DNA of 64,000 nt from Spirochaetia bacterium (GCA_963675665.1 OY776510.1:1024001-1088000); one strand, 5' to 3'. Shown: positions 4,137 to 14,557, counted from the first letter of the stretch. Translations and numbers: made by a program. Notes: generated by a model not told the origin, from the sequence alone.

Positions 4137-4484
4137 TCAAATTGATTGCATTGCTTCTTCTATACTGTCATACATATCAATGACCTGATCAAGGCGGGTA
4201 AGCTTAAAAATATTTCCGGGAATCTCTGATAATCCTGCAAGTTTGAGCCATCCTTCTGCTTCGCGGGTACTTTTTAATGCAGAAACAAAAATTGCCAGTC
4301 CTGAACTGTCCAGGAAGGTGATGCCTGATAGATCAAAAACAAGTTCATTATATCCCTGACCGATGAGATCCTGCAGGTATTCTTTGATATCTCCTGAATT
4401 TGAAGCTGTGAGTCGGCCGGAAATTGTTATCAGGTTTCTGTTGCCGGTAATCTTCTCATTTTCTATAAGATGGTTCTCTTCCAT
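4137..4484 (-). CDS. STAS-domain anti-sigma-factor antagonist (RsbV/SpoIIAA family)
   Basis: SGRL...LVFDLSGITFLDSSGL with the conserved phosphoacceptor Ser; IFKLTRLD. Confidence 0.93.
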   Translation of the reverse strand: MEENHLIENEKITGNRNLITISGRLTASNSGDIKEYLQDLIGQGYNELVFDLSGITFLDSSGLAIFVSALKSTREAEGWLKLAGLSEIPGNIFKLTRLDQVIDMYDSIEEAMQSI

Positions 4485-4498
4485 ATTTCTCTCCTTGA

Positions 4499-6436
4499 TT
4501 ATTCATCTTTCTCATTCATTAATTCCGGATCCGGTTGGGGGTTCCAGTTTTCCGGAAGAGTGAATACAGCTGCTCTTACGATTGTGCTGAGATTAATACT
4601 ATTATACAAAGCCCAGAAAATATTTATTCCCAGTCCTAACGGAGCATATGCTGTTCCTGAAACAATTAAGATTATAGAGTATAAGGATGCTCCGCAGGAA
4701 ATCAGGATGATAAGTAATTGAATTCTAACAAGATGAAGGAATCTGCCGGACTGCCTTTCTTTCGGAGTTACAACGAACCGGGGTTTTCGTCCCAGAAGAA
4801 CACTGACAATAGCTTTAATCCAGACAGGAAATAATGCAAGAGAGTATTGTTCGCCCCTTCGAACACTGGTTCCGTGTGAAATATATTTGAACATCAGTCT
4901 GTTAAACAGTAAAAACGGAACAAGTCTCCAGAGGAATTCCGCGGAGTAGGTGGCCACCGGCGCTATACGTGTAGTAAGGTAAATTAACGGAGATATAATA
5001 AATATTAAACTTGCAAATCCGCTGAAATATGAGTAGATCGTTGTAAAATACTGAAGCCGTTGAAAGAACGAAAGCCCCTTTACCATCAACGGATTTTCTT
5101 TTAAAAGGACCTGGATTGTTCCCTGTGCCCATCGTAATCTTTGTGATAAAACCGAACCGAGATCTTCTGGCGCCAATCCCTGCGCAAGAATTTCGTTATG
5201 ATAAATACTCTTCCATCCGAGAGAATGCAACCGTATAGAGCTTGCCATATCTTCTGTTATACTGAATGTAGCGAGAGGAAGAATGGGTATCGCTTCATCA
5301 GGCCGGGTTATCTCGAGGGTTGCCAAAAGCTCATCTGAAAGTCCGGGGAGTTTTTCTCCGGGATTTTTAACAACAAATTCTGTTTTACTGATATCATTCC
5401 TGATTTTATCAAAAACCCTGGCAACGGGTTTTTCAGTTTTAAGCATTTCATTTGATTCATACAGTGTCTTTTTAAGGGTTGATGCAAATGATTTTTCCAG
5501 TGTATTTTTTGGCCGGTACCGGGCAAGTTCATGCTGCATAAGCAAAAGGTTTTTTTTCGCCTGTTGAATTACGGTTCTTGAATATTCAATAATTCCAAGC
5601 TGAAGCAGTGCTTCCCGGCGCAGCAGAGCGTTAGAACCGCAGAAAAAAGCGGAATTCCAGCCGTCTTTACCTTCAAGAATTGGACCGTAAAAAAGTTTTG
5701 CATCCGAACCGAAAGGGTCTCCGGGAGGTGTATTGTAGAAATGCTGAGGAGTCTGCACAAAAGCAACCTTCTCGTCACTGAAGTATCCTATGGTTTTTCT
5801 AACTATCTGCGGCGATGGTATCTGATCTGCATCAAGCATCAAAATAAAATCACCCGATGTTTGAAGTAGCGCATTATTTACATTCCCGGCCTTGGCATGC
5901 ATGGGTTTCCCTTTCCAGTTTTCGCCGCGGGTTATAACCTTACAGTCATATTTTTCGGCCAGAGTTTTTATAGCTGGTCTGTTTCCGTCATCAAGAACAT
6001 ATATTATTTTTTCGGGCCAGAGGATTTTCTGTGCGGCTTGCATTGTCAAAGCGACAAGTTCCGGGGGTTCGTTGTATGTGGTGATGAAAACATCCACAGA
6101 GGCGGAAGCCGGCGGTTCCGGTGGTTTTCGGTTTACAGGTTTCCACATCATCAGCGCAAATAATATGGAATCAAAGTAGGAATATGTTTCAGCTGCTACA
6201 AGGGGAATAGCAAACCATAGAGCATTAAGGTTTAAGCTGTATCGGTAACGCCAGTAAAGATAATATGTGGCAAGGATAACCGTACAGCAAGCTAATATGC
6301 GAAAGCCTGCCGTTTTTTTCTTTACCTGATCCTTGTATTTTATAAGCCTTGTAATAATCAGGGCAACCAGAAATAGTGTAATGATTATACCTGTTATCAG
6401 GATTGTTTTATATTCAGGCAGTAAAAGAGTTTTCAT
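4499..6436 (-). CDS. bcsA: Processive GT2 beta-glucan synthase, cellulose synthase BcsA/CesA-like, lacking PilZ and carrying a ~100-aa insertion before TED
   Basis: VDVFITTYNE, LDDG, HAKAGN, LDADQ, VQTPQ, FFCGS, TED, QRLRW and FVVTPK motifs; N- and C-terminal TM helices; no RxxxR PilZ tail. Confidence 0.88.
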   Translation of the reverse strand: MKTLLLPEYKTILITGIIITLFLVALIITRLIKYKDQVKKKTAGFRILACCTVILATYYLYWRYRYSLNLNALWFAIPLVAAETYSYFDSILFALMMWKPVNRKPPEPPASASVDVFITTYNEPPELVALTMQAAQKILWPEKIIYVLDDGNRPAIKTLAEKYDCKVITRGENWKGKPMHAKAGNVNNALLQTSGDFILMLDADQIPSPQIVRKTIGYFSDEKVAFVQTPQHFYNTPPGDPFGSDAKLFYGPILEGKDGWNSAFFCGSNALLRREALLQLGIIEYSRTVIQQAKKNLLLMQHELARYRPKNTLEKSFASTLKKTLYESNEMLKTEKPVARVFDKIRNDISKTEFVVKNPGEKLPGLSDELLATLEITRPDEAIPILPLATFSITEDMASSIRLHSLGWKSIYHNEILAQGLAPEDLGSVLSQRLRWAQGTIQVLLKENPLMVKGLSFFQRLQYFTTIYSYFSGFASLIFIISPLIYLTTRIAPVATYSAEFLWRLVPFLLFNRLMFKYISHGTSVRRGEQYSLALFPVWIKAIVSVLLGRKPRFVVTPKERQSGRFLHLVRIQLLIILISCGASLYSIILIVSGTAYAPLGLGINIFWALYNSINLSTIVRAAVFTLPENWNPQPDPELMNEKDE

Positions 6437-6437
6437 A

Positions 6438-8312
6438 TCATCTCCTTTTTACGATATGCCAATGGTTACCTTGCGGTTCGACAGCGGTATGGGTAAATTC
6501 ATCGGAAAGGTTCTGTATTATTCTTAGCCCATGACCTCCCTCTTTTAGAAGATCCTCAGCCTTTGCCGGTTGAAGATCACTTGTAAATACAGGAGCAGTA
6601 TCGTAAAGATCAAGTTCCGCCTTGTCGGTATTAAGAGAGAGTTTAAGTGATACACAACCGTCAAAATTCTTGTGTGAATGCATTATTACGTTTGTAAATA
6701 GCTCGGAAGCGGAAAGTTCCATTGCATAAGAAAATTCCTGTCCATATGCCGAACAGCCGTTACGGACAATCGTGTTCATCGCCTCAAGATTTTCAAGTTT
6801 TGCTTCAAAAGAGTATTGTAAAGTTCGGGGTTTTGCAATAAAAGTAATCAGTGAGATATCGTCTGAAAGAGGTGTTTCTTTCCTGAAATCCGATACAGCT
6901 TTAATAATAGATTGGAGCCTGTCTTCTGCATTCGGAAAAGACGATGTCGTGATTGTTTCAATTAATCTGTCCATCCCGAAGAGTTCCCATTGTTCATTAT
7001 GAGCTTCCGTAATACCGTCGCTGTAAAGAATAAAAGTATCTCCCGGTGCCAGACAGGCGCTTGTTTCTGAATATTCAACCTCATCCAGGACTCCCAGAGG
7101 GATTCCTGTCGGAGACAGTAACTCAATTGAATTTTCATAAAAGCGCAACAGTATAGCCTGAGTATGTCCTGCACTGGAATAAATGAGTTCGGAAGTGTCC
7201 GGGTTAAACACAGCTGTAAAAAAAGTTACGAACTTCTCTGCCTGGCTAAGCTGGTTGTACAATTTATGATTAATCTCATGGAGAAATGAAGCCGGAGTCT
7301 CTGCGGGAGTTACTCCGGATTGTATCAGTGTTTTAATGGAGGAGGCCAGCATCGCTGCCGGAACACCTTTGCCGGAAATATCGGCCATGGCAAAAAAGCA
7401 CTTATTATCCGGCTGCAGGAAGCAGTCGTAAAGATCTCCGCTGACATATCTTGCGGGTATCGCAAGTGCGGATATATCAAATCCGTCTAATTCAGGAAGG
7501 ACTGTTGGCAGAAGGCTTGTTTGAACTTTTCCTGCCAAATCTATATCCCTGTGAAGTAAGGCAAGGTGTTCCTGAATCATTTTTTCCGTCTTTTTCCTGT
7601 CGCTTATGTCCTGCATTATAGCAACAAAGTAAGACAATTCACCCTGAGGGTTGTATACCGGAGCAATGGTTTGTTCAACAGTATACAAGGTTCCTTCGGG
7701 TTTCCGGTTTACAACTTCTCCGGTCCATACCATTCCGGAGTTTAAGGTATCTATTATGGATGTAAAAAAATTCTCACTGTGTACTCCGGAGCTTAGAATC
7801 TTTGGCGTTCTGCCTTCTATCTCTTTTCTTGTAAATCCGGAAATTTTTAAAAATGAAGAATTGACCCAGGTTACTACTTTATTTTTATTCATCAGGTAAA
7901 TTCCGTTTGCAGCCGCTTCCATGGCGGTATAACTGACCCGAAGCTGCTCTTCCTGTTCTTTCAGAAGAGTGATATCCCTTCCGGCTGCATAGAACAGGTT
8001 TTTCCACTTGTGAGGAATTATGTTCCACTGTATCCAGCGGAATTCATTTGCCTGATCTATATATTGTGTATCAAATGTAAAACTCTTTTTTTCATGTCTT
8101 GCTTTTTTTAATTGAATTTTAAAATCATTTTTATATTCACCCGGAAAAAAATCGTAAAGCGGAAGCCCTAAAGGCTTAATCCCGTTATTTGGGAATGTTT
8201 TACAGAACGAAGTATTAATTTTCTTCAGACGGCCGTCGTCCCTGATTATTGCAGAAGGGTCTGCAGAGAATGTGAAGAACCTGTTTATATTATTAAATTC
8301 CGGCAATGCCAT
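6438..8312 (-). CDS. PAS-PAS-SpoIIE/PP2C phosphatase-RsbW-like Ser kinase fusion
   Basis: Two PAS/PAC units (ending RDIT and QDIS); PP2C motifs SGDLYD, ADISGKGVPAA, YSDGITEA, SDDIS; C-terminal HATPase (ELFTNVIMH, YDTAPVF, EGGHGL). Confidence 0.9.
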   Translation of the reverse strand: MALPEFNNINRFFTFSADPSAIIRDDGRLKKINTSFCKTFPNNGIKPLGLPLYDFFPGEYKNDFKIQLKKARHEKKSFTFDTQYIDQANEFRWIQWNIIPHKWKNLFYAAGRDITLLKEQEEQLRVSYTAMEAAANGIYLMNKNKVVTWVNSSFLKISGFTRKEIEGRTPKILSSGVHSENFFTSIIDTLNSGMVWTGEVVNRKPEGTLYTVEQTIAPVYNPQGELSYFVAIMQDISDRKKTEKMIQEHLALLHRDIDLAGKVQTSLLPTVLPELDGFDISALAIPARYVSGDLYDCFLQPDNKCFFAMADISGKGVPAAMLASSIKTLIQSGVTPAETPASFLHEINHKLYNQLSQAEKFVTFFTAVFNPDTSELIYSSAGHTQAILLRFYENSIELLSPTGIPLGVLDEVEYSETSACLAPGDTFILYSDGITEAHNEQWELFGMDRLIETITTSSFPNAEDRLQSIIKAVSDFRKETPLSDDISLITFIAKPRTLQYSFEAKLENLEAMNTIVRNGCSAYGQEFSYAMELSASELFTNVIMHSHKNFDGCVSLKLSLNTDKAELDLYDTAPVFTSDLQPAKAEDLLKEGGHGLRIIQNLSDEFTHTAVEPQGNHWHIVKRR

Positions 8313-8961: not shown

Positions 8962-9076
8962 TATTAAAAACTGCTTTAGATGCGAACTTTCATACATTAT
9001 TATTAAAACAGTAATAACCATTTCATGTTTTTTGTATGGTATAATCTACGGATTATCAGGTTTAACGGGAGGGAAT

Positions 9077-10498
9077 ATGTCTTTTAACTGGAATTTTTAT
9101 ATTCATGCAGGTATTATTGCGGCCGGGTTGATAATTGCAGTCTTTTTACGATCCAGGATAAAATTCTTCCAGAGATTCCTGATTCCCAATTCTATAATTG
9201 CCGGGTTCCTTTTAATGCCGTTTTATAATTTTGTTTTTCCCAAAGTCGGATTCAGCCAGGAATATCTCGGCGAGATTGCCTACCATCTGTTGAGCATATC
9301 GTTTGTTGCGCTCTCCATGCGTACTATAAAAAAATCCAGCAGAGCAAACCGAAATCGTCAGGGGAATGCTGTAATTCTTCTGAGCCAGTACGGTGTTCAG
9401 GCTTTTATTGGAATTATTATCACGTGGCTATTTCTTAAAACCATAAAACCGGATCTTTTTCATAGTTTCGGTTTTCTATTCCCGCTTGGATTTGCTCTTG
9501 GTCCTGGCCAGGCTTTTGCCATTGGCGAGGGCTGGAAAGTTTTCGGTATTGAAGACGCCGGAACTGTAGGTCTTACGTTTGCCGCTTTGGGCTTTATTGT
9601 GGCCAGTTTCGGCGGAGTTTTTCTGATTCATTACGGTATTAAACACAACTGGATAAGTTCCGATTATATGAAAAAGATTAGAAAAACAGATGTCAGAACA
9701 GGAGTTTTTCCGAGAGGAGCAAAACGTCCGGTAGGAGCATATCAGACAACCCAGTCGGAAGCAATCGATTCTTTTACCGCCAATATGATTTTTATTCTTC
9801 TAAGTTACCTTTTAAGTTATCTGCTGCTGAAAGGTTTGGGCTGGCTGCTGGCTTTTGCCGGGGCCATGGGAACTGAACTTGCGACCAATCTGTGGGGAAT
9901 CAGTTTTATTTTTGCGGCTCTGGTCGGGTTGCTTGTTCGAAGGGTAATGACGGGACTCCGGGTTGATCACATTCTGGATGACAGTACCCTGGGCCGTATT
10001 TCAGGTATTTCGGTGGACATTATGGTTACAAGCTCCATCGCTGCAATCAGTCTGGTAATTGCTTTCAAATACTGGCTTCCGATACTGGTAACTACTGTAG
10101 CCGGTACTGTCTTAATTCTTGTGCTTGTACCATGGATGGCTTCGCGGGTGTTCAGCAATAACAGGTTTCTGCGGACAATTATTCTTTTCGGCGCTGTAAC
10201 GGGGACTCTGACTACGGGGCTTGCTCTGCTCAGGGTTCTGGATCCGGAGTTTGAAACTCCTGTGGCCTCGGATTACAGTTACGCGTCGGGGATAACATTT
10301 GTAGCTGCCATACCTTTTATCCTTGCGATCAATTTCCCGGCAAAAGCCTACCAGACGGGTGACATGAGGTGGTTTGTCGCGGGAATTGCGGTAGCGGCCG
10401 GGTATATAGTTATTACGCTTTTATGGTATATGTTGCTTGCAAAAAAGAAATCATTCGCACGCGGTTCACAAATTTGGGCGCTGGAACGGCGGAAATAA
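9077..10498 (+). CDS. gltS: Sodium/glutamate symporter (GltS/ESS family)
   Basis: FQRFLIPNSIIAG, GFALGPGQA, GLTFAALG, FGAVTGT-TTGLALLRVLDP. ATG 9077 after GGAGGG is preferred over TTG 9032. Confidence 0.8.
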   Translation: MSFNWNFYIHAGIIAAGLIIAVFLRSRIKFFQRFLIPNSIIAGFLLMPFYNFVFPKVGFSQEYLGEIAYHLLSISFVALSMRTIKKSSRANRNRQGNAVILLSQYGVQAFIGIIITWLFLKTIKPDLFHSFGFLFPLGFALGPGQAFAIGEGWKVFGIEDAGTVGLTFAALGFIVASFGGVFLIHYGIKHNWISSDYMKKIRKTDVRTGVFPRGAKRPVGAYQTTQSEAIDSFTANMIFILLSYLLSYLLLKGLGWLLAFAGAMGTELATNLWGISFIFAALVGLLVRRVMTGLRVDHILDDSTLGRISGISVDIMVTSSIAAISLVIAFKYWLPILVTTVAGTVLILVLVPWMASRVFSNNRFLRTIILFGAVTGTLTTGLALLRVLDPEFETPVASDYSYASGITFVAAIPFILAINFPAKAYQTGDMRWFVAGIAVAAGYIVITLLWYMLLAKKKSFARGSQIWALERRK

Positions 10499-10531
10499 AA
10501 CGGAACAATCGGGATAATAGAATGTATTATA

Positions 10532-10572
10532 TGTAAAGTAAACTTGACAAATAGGAAAGTTTGCGCTACATT
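10532..10572 (+). promoter_or_regulatory. Sigma70 promoter with overlapping imperfect palindromic operator; probably leaderless transcript
   Basis: TTGACA (10544-49), 17 bp, TACATT (10567-72). TGTAAAG-TAAA-CTTGACA (10532-49) overlaps the -35. ATG 10580 lies 7 nt after the -10 and has no SD. Confidence 0.65.
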
Positions 10573-10579
10573 TAAACTC

Positions 10580-11116
10580 ATGAAACGTCAAAAATCCTTT
10601 ATAAGGAAACTTTTATGTTTATTTGTTCTGCTGGTTATCTGCCTGTCGGCAGTTTCAGCAGAAGCATCCCGAAGTGAGCGTCCAATCGATTTTTATGCCG
10701 AGTTTTCCAGAATGCTGTCTCTGCAGCTCGGTATGGAATACTATTTTAACGATTACTTAGGTATTAAAGGGAGCCTGGGTGCTTCACCCTTCATGATAAC
10801 AACATGGACTTATAATCTGCTGGGTGTTTACCATTTCAACCTTCCGGCGGAGCATTTTCAGCTTGATTTTGAAGCGGGGCTTCCGCTGGCATACCTGGAT
10901 CTGTTTGAAGGCCGTGTAACCGATTGGGACCCGCAGATCGAAAGTCCTTTTATGGGTTTTCTGCCGGGAGTCGCTGTTCTGGCTTCATACAGGTTCAATG
11001 AAGAACATGCATTAGGGGTTCGTTTAGGCGGATCGGTTCAGTTTGAATACCGGTTTAACGGCAGCTGGCAGCAGCCGGGGTTTATCCCCGTTTTTGCGCT
11101 TGTTTACAATTTCTGA
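10580..11116 (+). CDS. Exported, probable small outer-membrane beta-barrel protein
   Basis: Signal peptide (MKRQK...SAVSA), alternating hydrophobic strands, C-terminal aromatic (VYNF). The track's TTG 10544 is the -35 box, so ATG 10580 is preferred. Confidence 0.65.
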   Translation: MKRQKSFIRKLLCLFVLLVICLSAVSAEASRSERPIDFYAEFSRMLSLQLGMEYYFNDYLGIKGSLGASPFMITTWTYNLLGVYHFNLPAEHFQLDFEAGLPLAYLDLFEGRVTDWDPQIESPFMGFLPGVAVLASYRFNEEHALGVRLGGSVQFEYRFNGSWQQPGFIPVFALVYNF

Positions 11117-11124
11117 AGGCGGCG

Positions 11125-11328
11125 GTGAAGAACAATATAGGTTTATTCAGGTATCAGAAAGGCAGAATCTCACAGGCAAAGCTGGCTGAACTGACAGGCG
11201 TCAGCAGGCAGAGTATCAACGCTATTGAAACCGGCCGTTTCAATCCGTCGGTTGAACTTGCAATGAAGATAGCCGCCGTTCTTGACTGCCGGGTTGAGGA
11301 CCTTTTTATCCTGGAGGATGATAAATGA
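11125..11328 (+). CDS. XRE-family helix-turn-helix transcriptional regulator
   Basis: SQAKLAELTGVSRQSINAIETGRFNPSVELAMKIA...VEDLF is a canonical HTH_3. Confidence 0.93.
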   Translation: MKNNIGLFRYQKGRISQAKLAELTGVSRQSINAIETGRFNPSVELAMKIAAVLDCRVEDLFILEDDK

Positions 11329-12002
11329 AAAAGATACCGTTTGACAGGCTTAAAAAAATCAGGAAAACGAGTGTTATAGAATTCTCCGGCGGGCTTGCCG
11401 GGGCTGTGCTGGGAATGGTCGTCAGTCCGTGGTTTTATCTGCTGACGGCCGCCGCTCTTTATGTTCCTCCAGTGTTGAGGGTTTTCGGGGTGCAGAAAGA
11501 TGTTGATGAGTTTGAGCTTGATTCAATTAAATGGGGCGCACTTGCAAGTTTTGTTGTTACCGGCTGTTTTCTGTTCGCATACCTGATTTTTTCTGTCGTT
11601 AAGGAAGACCCGGATGATTTTTCCGGAATAATGTATTTTCTGATAATTGTCCAGGCATTCTCGTATTTCATGTTCCGTTACTATCGTTTCTGGATGAGCC
11701 GCAGGGCGGGACGGCTGATCATAGGAATCGAATTGCTGTTCTGGGGTCTGTTTACGGTGCTGAGCGCCGAATCTGTCGGCGGATTTCTCATGCAGTCGCT
11801 TGCGACAATAGTTCCACCGGCTGCAATCATTGTTTTGTCGCTGTTTCGACCGCGAATCAGCGGAGTAATATGCGCGGCATTCAGCATCTTCACAATGTTT
11901 TTCTTCGGCGTGCTGGATAATATGTTTGTGTTCATTCTGCTGTCGGTGCCGCTGATGCTCGCAAGTATTGCGCTGTTTATAAGCCCCAATGACAGTAGAT
12001 GA
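11325..12002 (+). CDS. Integral membrane protein, XRE-associated
   Basis: About 7 hydrophobic segments and a 'DEFE' cytoplasmic motif; start and stop junction with the XRE gene is abutting or overlapping. Confidence 0.75.
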   Translation: MKKIPFDRLKKIRKTSVIEFSGGLAGAVLGMVVSPWFYLLTAAALYVPPVLRVFGVQKDVDEFELDSIKWGALASFVVTGCFLFAYLIFSVVKEDPDDFSGIMYFLIIVQAFSYFMFRYYRFWMSRRAGRLIIGIELLFWGLFTVLSAESVGGFLMQSLATIVPPAAIIVLSLFRPRISGVICAAFSIFTMFFFGVLDNMFVFILLSVPLMLASIALFISPNDSR

Positions 12003-12010
12003 AATATTTT

Positions 12011-12408
12011 CTATCTGGTAATCTTTCGGATCATCTTTCCGACAAGTTTTGAAGTCTTTTTTGTCACTTCCCTGCCTGCTTCCCGTGCAATCTGGTTTTT
12101 GACGGCCCCGAACAGTTTTTCCGGGGAAATATCGCCCTTTATAGCTCCTTTCAGATCGAACGGTTTTTGTCGGTCCGAATCGGGCGCGGCCCCGGTTTCG
12201 GGGATATCGTCAATAGTCCATGCGGTTAGTGTTTTCCATTCACCGGAACCAGCCAGCCAGGCGGTAAATATCCTTTCCGTTGTTTCGACTGATAATCCGG
12301 GACCGCTGCTGTAATGTCCGGAAGCGTCCTGGTACTCGGCAATAAATCCCGTTTCGGAATACGCGCACTGGATATAGTCTTCTCCGTTTGAAAGAATCAG
12401 AAAATCGT
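12011..12408 (-). pseudogene. 5'-truncated duplicate of the hypothetical gene at 22859..23344
   Basis: Identical in protein to residues DFLILSNG...RKITR of the 161-aa gene except for one G/E change. The track's N-terminus (12409-12478) is unrelated sequence. Confidence 0.85.
12012..12408. repeat. 397-bp direct repeat, copy 1 (copy 2 at 22860..23256)
   Basis: Base-by-base comparison shows 5 substitutions and no indels. Confidence 0.95.
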
Positions 12409-12595
12409 AGATGATTTCCAAGCAGGAAAAAGAGATAGTGCAGAGTTCTGGATTCAAATGGATGGTGAATTTATCCACATCCGGTATTTCCCGTTATTTG
12501 AAGGGGCAAGCTATAAAGACGTTATCGAAGTAAGCCAGGAAATATCTTACAGGAGAAGTCTTGAAAAAGAAAAACGTCTGCTGGATGAAGAATGA
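12398..12595 (+). pseudogene. 3' fragment of a DUF438/PAS_10-type protein
   Basis: Hand translation QKIVDDFQAGKRDSAEFWIQMDGEFIHIRYFPLFEGASYKDVIEVSQEISYRRSLEKEKRLLDEE* resembles the C-terminal PAS of DUF438/hemerythrin proteins. It has no start or 5' part. Confidence 0.7.
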
Positions 12596-12607: not shown

Positions 12608-14557
12608 TTATCCTTTTAATGAGTAGTATTTATTTAGATATTCTATTCCTGAAGGTAAATTAAGTTTCAGGTTATATTCAATAACATTGTCTTCTTTAAA
12701 TAAAATATCCAATTCGCCGGTCATTGCTTTAATAATTTTATTTGCGATTGCAATACTAAGATCTACACCGGTTTTAAAGAAAGTATTTTCTTTGGTATTT
12801 ATTGCGTTAACAATTGATTCCTTTTTTAATTCGGAAAAAATAATGCCCTGAACAATTATTTTAAAAACAGCTTTAAAATTGCTGTACTTAACAGTAATAT
12901 CAATATCGCTGTCCAATGCATTCATAACAACTGTATTTATAAGAAGAATTGTCACATGTAAAAGACGGGCTTCATCACCAAAAACAATTTTTGGGATCTC
13001 GGAATGAATTCTGAAATTTATTGTTGAATTGGTTGGATGGTTCTTTTTTACAATAGTTTTAATTCTGTTAAGGAAATTTAATAAATTAAATGCAGCTATC
13101 TGGAATTTCATTTCGCCGCTTTGAAACTCAATAAAATTAATAATATCTTTAGTCAGTATCGTAATATAATTGCACTCAAAGAAAAGTTTATCAAATGATG
13201 AATCCTTGTCGTTTATTTCCTGGATATTCTTTAAAAGTTGATTTTCTATTCTTGTCATTGAATTCAGATATTCATTTGTCATGGTCAACAAGAATTGAGT
13301 TTTTTGCTCATTTGCTATTCGTTCTTCTTCCTTCCTTTTTTCCATTTCCTGTTTTGCCAGAATTCGTTGAGTAATATCACGGCTGATACCCAGTAAACCT
13401 ATTACGTTGTTATCTGAATCAAAGAATGGAGCTTTATAAACCTCAAAACGTCTTTTCTCACCATCAGGGTAAGACATCCACTCTTCGTTTTTAAATGGTT
13501 TATTATTTTTATATACTATCCTGTCGTGTTCCAGAAAGAACTCAGCCATATGATAGGGATGAATTTCGAAGTCAGAAGATCCGATTATTTTTTCTTTTGG
13601 TAAACCTACAATTTTTGCAAATGCATTATTACATCCCATTAAAATTCCGTTTACATCCTTGTAAAAAATCAAATCAGGAGATGCGTCGATTATCTTTTGT
13701 AATAATGTATATGCTTCTGTTAATTCCTGTTCTGATTTTTTTTGACGAGCTTCCAGTGAATAAATATAGTGTTTGCGGTAATGGCCGGGCGTTGTGGACT
13801 GATGCATTTTAAATGTACGGTTGAAATGAGATTCGCTTGAAAAGTGTAGAGCTTCAGAGATCTCGGCGATAGTCATTTTTGTTTCAATCAGTAATTGTGC
13901 CGCTTCCTGGGTTTTCAGAAAATTATAATATTTCATTGGAGGCTGGTTCATGTATGATTTAAAAATACGAATGAAGTAGGATTCGGTCAGGTTTAAAGAA
14001 TTACAAATGTCATTTAAATTAATTGTTTTGTATAAATTCTCTTTCATAAATTCGCAGGCGGAATCTATATAGGATATCATTTCCGGGGCGACTTCTTTTG
14101 ATTCATATTCATTCGGCAATCTGTATAAAATAGATTTTAATAAACTTGCGGCTGAATGTAAGGAAAAATCCTTTTTTATATTATACAGATTTTCTATATC
14201 ATAAATATACGAAATTAACTTTTTGTTTGAAGAATTATATTTTTGTGTTGAAAAAAAGTTATTAATAAAAGAGAGAAATTCTGAAGAAGACTCATCAAGT
14301 TTGAAATCTATGCGGTAATAAATAACCGGTTTCGAATGCGGCATGTAATTGATAGAATAATTTTTCCTGGGAAAAGTTAAAAAGAATGTGTAATCATTTA
14401 TTTCAAATTTATCATTTTCAATTCTAAAAAAACCGTCGCCGCTAAAAAAACAGTGAAATCTGTATTCCTGTTTTTGTTGTAAAACATATTGCGGTTCTTC
14501 GGAATTAAATTCCATTGGTGATTTATTAATTCTGTTAAAGATGTTAATAATTTTCAT
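12608..14557 (-). CDS. AraC-family regulator fused to PAS and a degenerate histidine kinase module
   Basis: AraC double HTH (LNLTESYFIRIFK...ISEALHFSSESHFNRTFK...TPGHYR); PAS (IIDASPDLIFYKD...GISRDIT); H-box lacking His (FLLTMTNEY); GDEARLLHV; degenerate G2 box (TGVDLSIA). Confidence 0.85.
   Translation of the reverse strand: MKIINIFNRINKSPMEFNSEEPQYVLQQKQEYRFHCFFSGDGFFRIENDKFEINDYTFFLTFPRKNYSINYMPHSKPVIYYRIDFKLDESSSEFLSFINNFFSTQKYNSSNKKLISYIYDIENLYNIKKDFSLHSAASLLKSILYRLPNEYESKEVAPEMISYIDSACEFMKENLYKTINLNDICNSLNLTESYFIRIFKSYMNQPPMKYYNFLKTQEAAQLLIETKMTIAEISEALHFSSESHFNRTFKMHQSTTPGHYRKHYIYSLEARQKKSEQELTEAYTLLQKIIDASPDLIFYKDVNGILMGCNNAFAKIVGLPKEKIIGSSDFEIHPYHMAEFFLEHDRIVYKNNKPFKNEEWMSYPDGEKRRFEVYKAPFFDSDNNVIGLLGISRDITQRILAKQEMEKRKEEERIANEQKTQFLLTMTNEYLNSMTRIENQLLKNIQEINDKDSSFDKLFFECNYITILTKDIINFIEFQSGEMKFQIAAFNLLNFLNRIKTIVKKNHPTNSTINFRIHSEIPKIVFGDEARLLHVTILLINTVVMNALDSDIDITVKYSNFKAVFKIIVQGIIFSELKKESIVNAINTKENTFFKTGVDLSIAIANKIIKAMTGELDILFKEDNVIEYNLKLNLPSGIEYLNKYYSLKG

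Follow-up and report, generated by a model that had tools for sequence, protein, structure and literature searches.

Positions 4137 to 8312 of a 64,000-nucleotide stretch from a Spirochaetia bacterium (GCA_963675665.1 OY776510.1:1024001-1088000; the whole stretch is called the window below) carry three genes that join a cellulose-synthase-like enzyme to a partner-switching module. P0002 is a BcsA-like processive synthase of glycosyltransferase (GT) family 2 without a PilZ domain, P0001 is a fusion of a PAS-containing sensor region with a PP2C/SpoIIE serine phosphatase and an RsbW-like serine kinase, and P0003 is a single-domain STAS protein. Canonical BcsA is gated by cyclic dimeric guanosine monophosphate (c-di-GMP) through PilZ, and RsbU/V/W modules normally control sigma factors. 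In the window, the unphosphorylated STAS protein probably binds the synthase and modulates it, activation being the likelier effect, and the PAS-regulated fusion protein would set the phosphorylation state without c-di-GMP. That is to say, the three genes would form a self-contained, sigma-less partner-switching cassette whose output is the synthase itself. Direct gating of the synthase by the STAS protein had been put forward in an initial annotation of the window, and as far as computation goes this interpretation is supported.

The three genes are co-directional on the minus strand, with a gap of 1 nt between P0001 and P0002 and of 14 nt between P0002 and P0003, and a Shine-Dalgarno-like ribosome site, AAGGAG, stands directly ahead of the STAS gene; calling of open reading frames (ORFs) gave the same tightly coupled layout as the initial annotation. 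That annotation had also reported that bcsB, bcsZ, bcsC and a sigma factor gene are not adjacent, and among the 13 ORFs between 987 and 14557 no match by Pfam to BcsB, GH8 glucanase, BcsC or sigma-factor families was found. By the same search of the neighbouring ORFs, there is no GGDEF gene at the locus. A promoter and terminator scan returned 12 promoter-like sites, 14.8 being expected.

The linkage of the three genes is widely conserved. A scan of one genome per species gave 598 confirmed relatives of the synthase, and the best 80 loci were analysed: ORFs were called and then searched with hidden Markov models iterated from the STAS, PP2C and RsbW pieces of the window, and phyla were assigned by hand. 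A STAS gene is found in 70 of the 80 loci, and in 55 of them it lies on the same strand, directly 3′ of the synthase; PP2C is found in 58, the RsbW-like kinase in 62, and all three partners in 53. By phylum, STAS is present in 4/4 loci of Spirochaetota, 36/38 of Actinomycetota, 3/5 of Chloroflexota, 26/31 of Cyanobacteriota and 1/2 of the others. Since the genome of the window has five STAS matches in 5.15 Mb, about 0.01 would be expected per 12 kb, and the linkage is therefore beyond chance. Gene-neighbourhood conservation had been named in the initial annotation as a check on its proposal, and the trio turns out to be kept in four phyla.

The order of the genes differs among the phyla. The order of the window, that is, the sensor-PP2C-RsbW fusion, the synthase and then STAS, is seen in Spirochaetota and in one Chloroflexota locus. 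In Actinomycetota the order is PP2C, synthase, STAS and RsbW, with overlapping stops and starts, and in Nostocales it is synthase, PIG-L, STAS, REC-PP2C (on the opposite strand), RsbW and a hybrid kinase. The sensor domain also varies with the locus (PAS in the window, GAF in L015, REC in L038), and the output side is constant. All-against-all clustering of the flanking ORFs revealed no further gene family common to the related loci; what comes after the cassette genes are clusters of shadow ORFs lying antisense to the synthase gene, and clusters of clade-specific genes. No sigma factor is conserved with the cassette in the 80 loci or in nine spirochaete and Chloroflexota loci compared separately, so that the module deserves the description "sigma-less" given to it earlier, and the clustering likewise showed no conserved GGDEF gene. 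The only genes shared by the window and these nine loci are the three of the cassette.

Nearer to the window, four out of 40 relatives of the source genome have the synthase, and none of five genomes of the same genus does. In all four synthase-bearing relatives STAS is directly downstream, and in all three whose contigs reach that far the PP2C-RsbW fusion is upstream. Because the trio is patchy in relatives, occurs with its three genes together and has no other gene in common between loci, it looks like a self-contained cassette whose genes come and go together. The relatives of P0002, of about 650 aa, run into thousands (4884 at E ≤ 1e-20 among 8000 scored), and PilZ is listed in 0 of the 120 best family members. 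As a separate observation, an actinobacterial locus of Microcella (L067:3719-8691) has a duplicated switch: besides the usual STAS and RsbW downstream of the synthase, another STAS gene and a fusion of RsbW with PP2C lie upstream of it.

The synthase P0002 contains the motifs LDDGN148, HAKAGN180, LDADQ201, QTPQ228, FFCGS264, TED394, QRLRW432 and FVVTPK554; in the last of these, the gating loop, F554, V556, T557 and K559 are invariant across 124 family members. Its alignment to E. coli BcsA stops at about chain position 689 of 887, ahead of PilZ, its C-terminus lies about 25 residues past the last membrane helix, and Pfam gives no PilZ (PF07238) match in it. Motifs, Pfam and the BcsA alignment together bear out what had been read from the sequence, namely that the enzyme keeps D,D,D,QxxRW and the gating loop and ends without PilZ. 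Its score against the NCBIfam CelA equivalog TIGR03030 is 350.5 bits, the cut-off being 699.1, and in Pfam it matches the plant-type Cellulose_synt model. The AlphaFold2 model, built from an alignment of 124 sequences, reaches a predicted local distance difference test (pLDDT) value of 86.9 and a predicted template-modelling (pTM) score of 0.85; its best structural matches are BcsA of E. coli (9b8v_E) and of Rhodobacter (4p00_A), with a template-modelling (TM) score of about 0.7, and plant CesA ranks next.

An insertion of about 105 aa (283–388), which is absent from the initial annotation, splits the GT domain of P0002 and appears as a gap in the BcsA alignment. AlphaFold2 models it as a helical bundle, with helices at 274–306, 312–333 and 338–350 and a pLDDT of 85–93, and no relative of it was found in Pfam or in the PDB. 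Lying between the acceptor site FFCGS and the catalytic base TED, it occupies a good place for allosteric control.

The STAS protein P0003 is of the anti-sigma-antagonist type: its Pfam STAS match has an E value of 4.2e-18, it scores 63.3 bits against the NCBIfam model TIGR00377 (cut-off 53.45), and it aligns to TM1442, RsbV and SpoIIAA. The DSSG motif noticed in the initial annotation is present; it starts at residue 59, so that the phosphorylatable serine is Ser60, and across 63 STAS proteins linked to synthases the conservation of this residue is at least 90%.

Modelling of the synthase together with the STAS protein, also suggested in the initial annotation, gave a complex with a score of 0.78 (0.78, 0.78 and 0.75 in the individual runs), and the best of three controls scored 0.00. 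Of 157 solved complexes, 116 come up to the mark used for this score, as do 2 of 215 mismatched pairs; this calibration is only rough here, the alignments being our own. At least 98% of the contacts recur between runs, and the partner has a pLDDT of at least 80. On the synthase side, the predicted interface comprises residues 191–196, 274–290, 335–343, 375–378 and 384–385, and on the STAS side residues 26–31, 59–61 (the DSS motif), 63–75, 79–80, 92, 95–104 and 114. Ser60 is within it and contacts synthase residue 278. Moreover, the interface is better conserved than its surroundings: the mean column entropy in the insertion is 1.53 bits at the interface and 2.40 bits elsewhere (Mann-Whitney p 8.6e-5), and the interface residues of the insertion coincide with a conserved G-x-P-L turn and a D-E-A-x-P stretch. 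In STAS the corresponding values are 1.25 and 1.94 bits (p 7e-4). Since the insertion has neither a solved nor a Pfam relative, it is unlikely that the prediction passed through memory of a similar complex.

The third protein, P0001, had been described as a PAS-PAS-PP2C-RsbW fusion with both catalytic motif sets intact. Pfam recognises a PAS domain (PAS_9, residues 136–238, E 2.2e-21), the SpoIIE/PP2C domain (residues 301–490, E 1.3e-45) and the kinase domain (HATPase_c_2, residues 502–618, E 1.5e-12, 48.1 bits against a cut-off of 27.4), and the first of the two PAS domains is matched weakly. All metal-site motifs of the phosphatase are present (SGDLYD291, DISGKG311, SDGITE431 and SDDIS483), and the domain aligns to the RssB-type PP2C 3es2/3eq2 (E 1.3e-19), to the SiaA-like 6k4e and to Rv1364c (3ke6). 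In the kinase, the N-box (SELFTNVIMHSH, residue 536) and the G2 box (GGHGL, residue 592) are intact; both line up with RsbW of B. subtilis (6m36). The claim about the motif sets stands for PP2C and for these two boxes; the G1 box reads D-T-A, the form in RsbW and in the related loci being D-x-G. The coordinates of all these features are collected in Table 1.

Table 1. Features of the three-gene cassette, with positions counted from the first letter of the window.
Feature	Position	Strand	Basis
P0003, 115 aa, single-domain STAS protein, anti-sigma-antagonist type	4137..4484	-	ORF, Pfam, TIGR00377
Codon of Ser60, predicted phosphorylation site (D59-S60-S61-G62)	4305..4307	-	Sequence; alignment with DSxG serine of RsbV and TM1442
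P0002, 645 aa, BcsA-like processive GT family 2 synthase/translocase without PilZ	4499..6436	-	ORF, Pfam, NCBIfam, BcsA alignment, AlphaFold2
Gating-loop motif FVVTPK of P0002, residues 554–559	4760..4777	-	Motif search; family conservation
Family-specific helical insertion of P0002, residues ~282–388, between FFCGS and TED; predicted STAS docking site	5273..5593	-	BcsA-alignment gap, AlphaFold2, complex prediction
P0001, 624 aa, sensor-phosphatase-kinase fusion (PAS-like, PAS, PP2C/SpoIIE, RsbW-like HATPase_c_2)	6438..8312	-	ORF, Pfam
RsbW/SpoIIAB-like GHKL serine-kinase domain of P0001, residues 502–618	6459..6809	-	Pfam HATPase_c_2, RsbW 6m36_A alignment
PP2C/SpoIIE serine phosphatase of P0001, residues ~250–495	6828..7565	-	Pfam, alignment to 3es2/3eq2, 6k4e and 3ke6, metal-site motifs
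PAS domain of P0001, residues ~130–240, confident sensor	7593..7925	-	Pfam PAS_9/PAS/PAS_4
N-terminal region of P0001, residues 1–125, possible second divergent PAS	7938..8312	-	Weak PAS_4 (Pfam) and sensory_box (NCBIfam) stretches

As for the signal, the PAS domain of P0001 (window 7593–7925, residues 130–240) shows weak NCBIfam matches to the PAS domains of NifL, YtvA and LOV kinases. Photoactive LOV domains carry the cysteine motif NCRFLQ, and P0001 reads TPKILS at that position; judged by sequence, blue light is probably not what this domain senses.

In the cyanobacterial branch of the family the kinase is found inside the enzyme. In six loci (L008, L009, L062, L069, L070 and L080) an RsbW-like domain lies in frame within the GT domain of the synthase, after DDG and before HAKAGN, so that GT motifs stand on either side; in the L008 synthase (L008:5911-8331), for example, HATPase_c_2 is matched at residues 213–338 with E 2.3e-18 (Pfam). 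The STAS gene follows the synthase with the nested kinase in five of the six loci, and at that point other cyanobacterial synthases carry a shorter insertion resembling a coiled coil. This is the one genuine fusion that was found, and it shows that in that cyanobacterial clade the switch acts on the enzyme itself. The fold prediction for the L008 synthase has a mean pLDDT of 67 and a pTM of 0.46; the kinase insert and the long helices flanking it fold well, and the rest is poor. Another candidate, P0006 (980 aa, PAS, SpoIIE and GT2 on one chain), was rejected as a functional fusion, being a deletion chimera in which the middle of PP2C is joined to about residue 50 of the synthase. STAS domains similar to the synthase-linked ones also occur fused to other enzymes (P0129, P0128 and P0140), namely to a WecG/TagA-type glycosyltransferase with two STAS stretches, to an OpgC-like acyltransferase and to a PTA_PTB phosphotransacylase.

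The working of the cassette may be pictured as follows. P0001 would sense a signal through its PAS region, and this would bias the balance between its kinase and its phosphatase: the RsbW-like domain would phosphorylate Ser60 of P0003, and the PP2C domain would strip the phosphate from it. Unphosphorylated P0003 would then dock on the helical insertion of P0002 (about 274–385) by the face with which it binds the kinase, and docking would alter the activity of the synthase, most likely by turning polymerisation and translocation of a putative beta-glucan on; phosphorylation of Ser60 would break the contact. The STAS protein would thus switch partners between the kinase and the enzyme, and the cassette would occupy the regulatory place that c-di-GMP and PilZ hold in canonical BcsA. 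Because the predicted docking face holds the phosphoserine and is also the one used on kinases, this would be a true partner switch with an enzyme as partner. Activation is favoured over inhibition by analogy, since in All4160 and SypA, two precedents to which we return below, it is STAS without the phosphate that is active.

Several points weigh against this mechanism or limit its reach. First of all, kinase activity of P0001 is not assured, judging by its deviant G1 box. The contact between P0003 and P0002 is a prediction from own alignments, which supports the docking and does not show it, and the conservation of the STAS surface is not a fully independent check, being expected from kinase binding as well. 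Since the cyanobacterial clade is without the TED-proximal insertion and has its insertion elsewhere in the GT domain, the modelled docking mode cannot apply to the whole synthase family. A model in which it is the kinase, not STAS, that touches the enzyme accounts equally well for the nested kinase, and because the rest of the L008 model is poor, the orientation of the kinase to the active site is unreadable. STAS is lacking in 10 of the 80 loci; two of these (L022 and L078) end at the synthase gene, and six, including L011, L045, L075, L076 and L080, have nearly 6 kb of downstream flank and are truly without the gene in it. Finally, three proteins that a profile search for longer forms listed with both Cellulose_synt and STAS (P0124, P0127 and P0186) only look like STAS-synthase fusions and were rejected as products of frameshifts or faulty gene calls: an Arg/Pro-rich, out-of-frame stretch occupies the C-terminal part of the synthase before STAS, so that they amount to adjacency only. 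A single-sequence search for such longer forms gave 317 candidates, none at E ≤ 1e-5.

It is unlikely, though of the alternatives it survives best, that the RsbW-like kinase itself contacts the synthase, in the role that it would otherwise play towards a sigma factor, and holds it in one state; unphosphorylated STAS would then remove RsbW, and PP2C would regenerate the STAS protein. This is the classical logic of partner switching, and the six cyanobacterial relatives that build an RsbW-like domain into the GT domain establish physical contact in that clade. In the window, however, the kinase is tethered to the phosphatase and not to the enzyme, and the contact that was modelled with controls is that of STAS with the synthase insertion. 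The two models are compatible and do not exclude each other.

A little less probable again is an ordinary partner switch acting on a distant sigma factor or transcription regulator, with the synthase merely co-transcribed and controlled through its expression. Such control is the canonical role of RsbU/V/W-type modules, and the 30 HATPase_c_2 matches in the source genome speak for it. However, no sigma factor is found in the 13 local ORFs or conserved in the 80 or the nine compared loci, the linkage to the synthase persists across three gene orders and two kinds of fusion, and the predicted interface is specific. Very improbable is a detour through c-di-GMP, in which the STAS protein would work like BgrV on the diguanylate cyclase BgrR or HsbA on HsbD, and the synthase would sense c-di-GMP by a part other than PilZ. 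Such a link between a partner switch and a mixed-linkage glucan synthase of BcsA-like type is described for Sinorhizobium, as cited in PMC8457831 and PMC13438883, and the source genome has 33 GGDEF matches, but GGDEF is neither at the locus nor conserved in the related loci, and the synthase stops about 25 residues after its last helix without PilZ.

The source genome (5.15 Mb, 96.4% complete) places the cassette in context. P0002 is its sole BcsA-like gene, and BcsB (PF03170) was not found anywhere in it. Because it has a rich c-di-GMP network, with 11 PilZ matches beside those to GGDEF, the lack of PilZ is specific to the P0002 enzyme. The best-scoring other STAS protein, of 183 aa (G000:C1:750526-751077; L086:3026-3577), adjoins an OmpR-type regulator and a sigma-54 activator, with no RsbW or sigma gene beside it, and a 139-aa HATPase elsewhere adjoins a receiver and a hydrogenase-like gene; a canonical RsbV-RsbW-sigma operon was not seen at either of these two loci.

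Around the cassette, six ORFs of 148–488 aa (window 9032–12478 and 987–2527) have no Pfam or NCBIfam match, and they are not common to related loci in the comparison with the nine spirochaete and Chloroflexota loci. Further away, at 12608–14557 on the minus strand, lies a gene for a 649-aa protein composed of an AraC-type HTH domain (185–262), a PAS domain (286–398) and a long unassigned C-terminal half.

The Nostocales locus L038 gives a lead to an orphan switch in Nostoc punctiforme. In L038 the synthase has a PIG-L deacetylase gene 3′ of it, and on its 5′ side lie genes for two DUF3131 proteins (928 and 486 aa) and for a weakly GH26-like protein (L038:314-5860). Judged by these neighbours, the Nostocales polymer may be processed or may contain amino sugars. 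A DUF3131 search of the source genome of the window gave no match, and the control for that search likewise matched nowhere. The block after PIG-L (L038:5950-13416) reads STAS (+), REC-PP2C (-), RsbW (+) and hybrid kinase (-), and the order, strands and annotations of HcyA-D (Npun_F1682 to R1685), as given in PMC9127174, match it, the comparison being one of descriptions and not of sequences. In N. punctiforme, Npun_F1469, annotated as cellulose synthase, is followed by the LmbE/PIG-L gene F1470 as in L038 (supplement 1 of PMC6495340). Adjacency of hcy to the synthase was considered there and rejected: in the expression table, the neighbours of hcyA are a hypothetical protein and an ArsR regulator, and hcyA-D lie about 210 genes from Npun_F1469/F1470. 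Expression of these six genes goes up in hormogonia in a sigJ-dependent way, staying flat in the sigJ mutant; F1469, for example, rises from 13 to 960, and for F1682 the values are 33 and 1172 (supplement 1 of PMC6495340). According to PMC9127174, HcyC binds none of SigC, SigF and SigJ, and the output of Hcy is unidentified. Because of the gene order shared with L038 and the co-induction, the Npun_F1469 synthase is a candidate target of this orphan partner switch.

A broader possibility can be offered tentatively, and we place less trust in it than in the mechanism proposed for the window. A free STAS phospho-protein might be the direct allosteric ligand of the whole PilZ-less family, with serine phosphorylation as its ancestral or main switch in Actinomycetota, Chloroflexota, Spirochaetota and Cyanobacteria, the regulator sitting at the insertion points of the class-specific region (CSR) and the plant-conserved region (P-CR) of plant CesA, and Npun_F1469 being the target of Hcy. 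If this were true, a STAS-docking helical bundle would occupy one insertion point of the GT domain and a built-in RsbW kinase the other, the same points having later been used by plant CesA for CSR and P-CR, and orphan sigma-less switches like HcyA-D would gain the hormogonium-induced synthase Npun_F1469 as their missing target.

The cassette matters in that it joins an enzyme class known from textbooks for c-di-GMP with a module known from them for sigma control, a combination that was not found in print. Direct docking of STAS on the enzyme, if true, would be an undescribed way to switch the production of a sugar polymer, and it would offer a post-translational switch of polymer synthesis without c-di-GMP in an organism that is heavy in c-di-GMP signalling. 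The cassette is spread over four phyla, including Gram-positive soil actinobacteria and cyanobacteria that lack a known regulation of these synthases, and it suggests a target for sigma-less switches whose outputs have long been open, namely Hcy and possibly Hmp and Syp. The predicted binding site (synthase residues ~274–385) and the predicted residue (STAS Ser60) make the idea testable, and those who engineer polysaccharide production may gain from the system a simple handle controlled by phosphorylation. The STAS domains fused to other enzymes hint that STAS may control glycan and metabolic enzymes directly on a wider scale than the literature reports.

Compared with BcsA of Rhodobacter (4hg6/4p00) and E. 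coli (9b8v), P0002 has the same fold and membrane architecture, with a TM score of about 0.7, and shares D,D,D, QxxRW, FFCGS, HAKAGN, TED and the FxVTxK gating loop; it differs in the missing PilZ, the absence of BcsB from the genome, the helical insertion of about 105 aa ahead of TED and the CelA score below the cut-off. By PilZ, BcsB and the equivalog score alike, the cassette is not a canonical Bcs system. With RsbU/RsbV/RsbW and SpoIIE/SpoIIAA/SpoIIAB it shares a DSxG STAS protein and a PP2C domain with metal-binding aspartates, and it is not a canonical Rsb system either, as no sigma factor lies in the 13 neighbouring ORFs or is conserved in related loci. The P0002 insertion, from the acceptor-site motif to TED, has a position that we take to be that of the CSR of plant CesA, and the cyanobacterial insertion, from DDG to KAG, presumably has that of the P-CR. 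In plants these insertions serve oligomerisation, and between the plant and bacterial insertions there is no sequence similarity.

Among sigma-less switches, the closest precedent is All4160 of Anabaena PCC 7120, whose STAS phosphoserine is set by HenR and Alr3423, a PP2C phosphatase and an RsbW-type kinase (PMC13555669, 2026). There a STAS domain directly controls an enzyme of polysaccharide synthesis, the non-phosphorylated form is active, and STAS is fused to a phosphoglycosyl transferase (Bac_transf), which the authors regard as a lineage-specific cyanobacterial strategy (PMC13555669). The cassette of the window likewise has PP2C, an RsbW-type kinase and a STAS tied to a polysaccharide enzyme; here, in contrast, STAS is free, the enzyme is a processive BcsA-like GT2, four phyla are covered, and kinase and phosphatase share one chain. 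STAS-fused glycosyltransferases of the All4160/XssP type in general have STAS joined to Bac_transf, whereas P0003 is a separate protein of 115 aa and its enzyme is a GT2 synthase.

In Vibrio fischeri, SypA is a single-domain STAS protein in a polysaccharide locus, whose unphosphorylated form promotes polysaccharide and biofilm, and SypE, with an RsbW-like kinase and PP2C on one protein, acts on it, no sigma factor being known there (PMC8256260). P0001 likewise has kinase and phosphatase on one chain, and its cassette genes flank the synthase. SypE is regulated by a receiver domain, unlike the PAS regulator here, the Syp pathway is not BcsA-type, and the target of SypA is unidentified in the literature.

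In Sinorhizobium meliloti, BgrV acts on the diguanylate cyclase BgrR, which through c-di-GMP activates BgsA, a PilZ-less mixed-linkage glucan synthase, as cited in PMC8457831 and PMC13438883. Both systems thus combine a partner switch with a PilZ-less BcsA-like beta-glucan synthase; there STAS acts on a cyclase, whereas here no cyclase is linked and STAS is predicted to touch the synthase. The original study on BgrSTUWV-BgrR-BgsA is reportedly that of Baena et al. (2019). HsbA-HsbD is another sigma-less partner switch in which a STAS protein regulates a diguanylate cyclase, and HmpUVW and HcyA-D are sigma-less partner switches whose targets are unidentified. A full-text search of the literature, with most subscription journals outside its coverage, found no paper linking a STAS protein directly to a BcsA-like synthase, and the published precedents are indirect or fused-domain ones (All4160, BgrV-BgrR-BgsA and SypA). 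In summary, what sets this cassette apart from the known sigma-less switches is a processive BcsA-like enzyme, a free STAS protein, a predicted docking on a family-specific insertion and a spread over four phyla.

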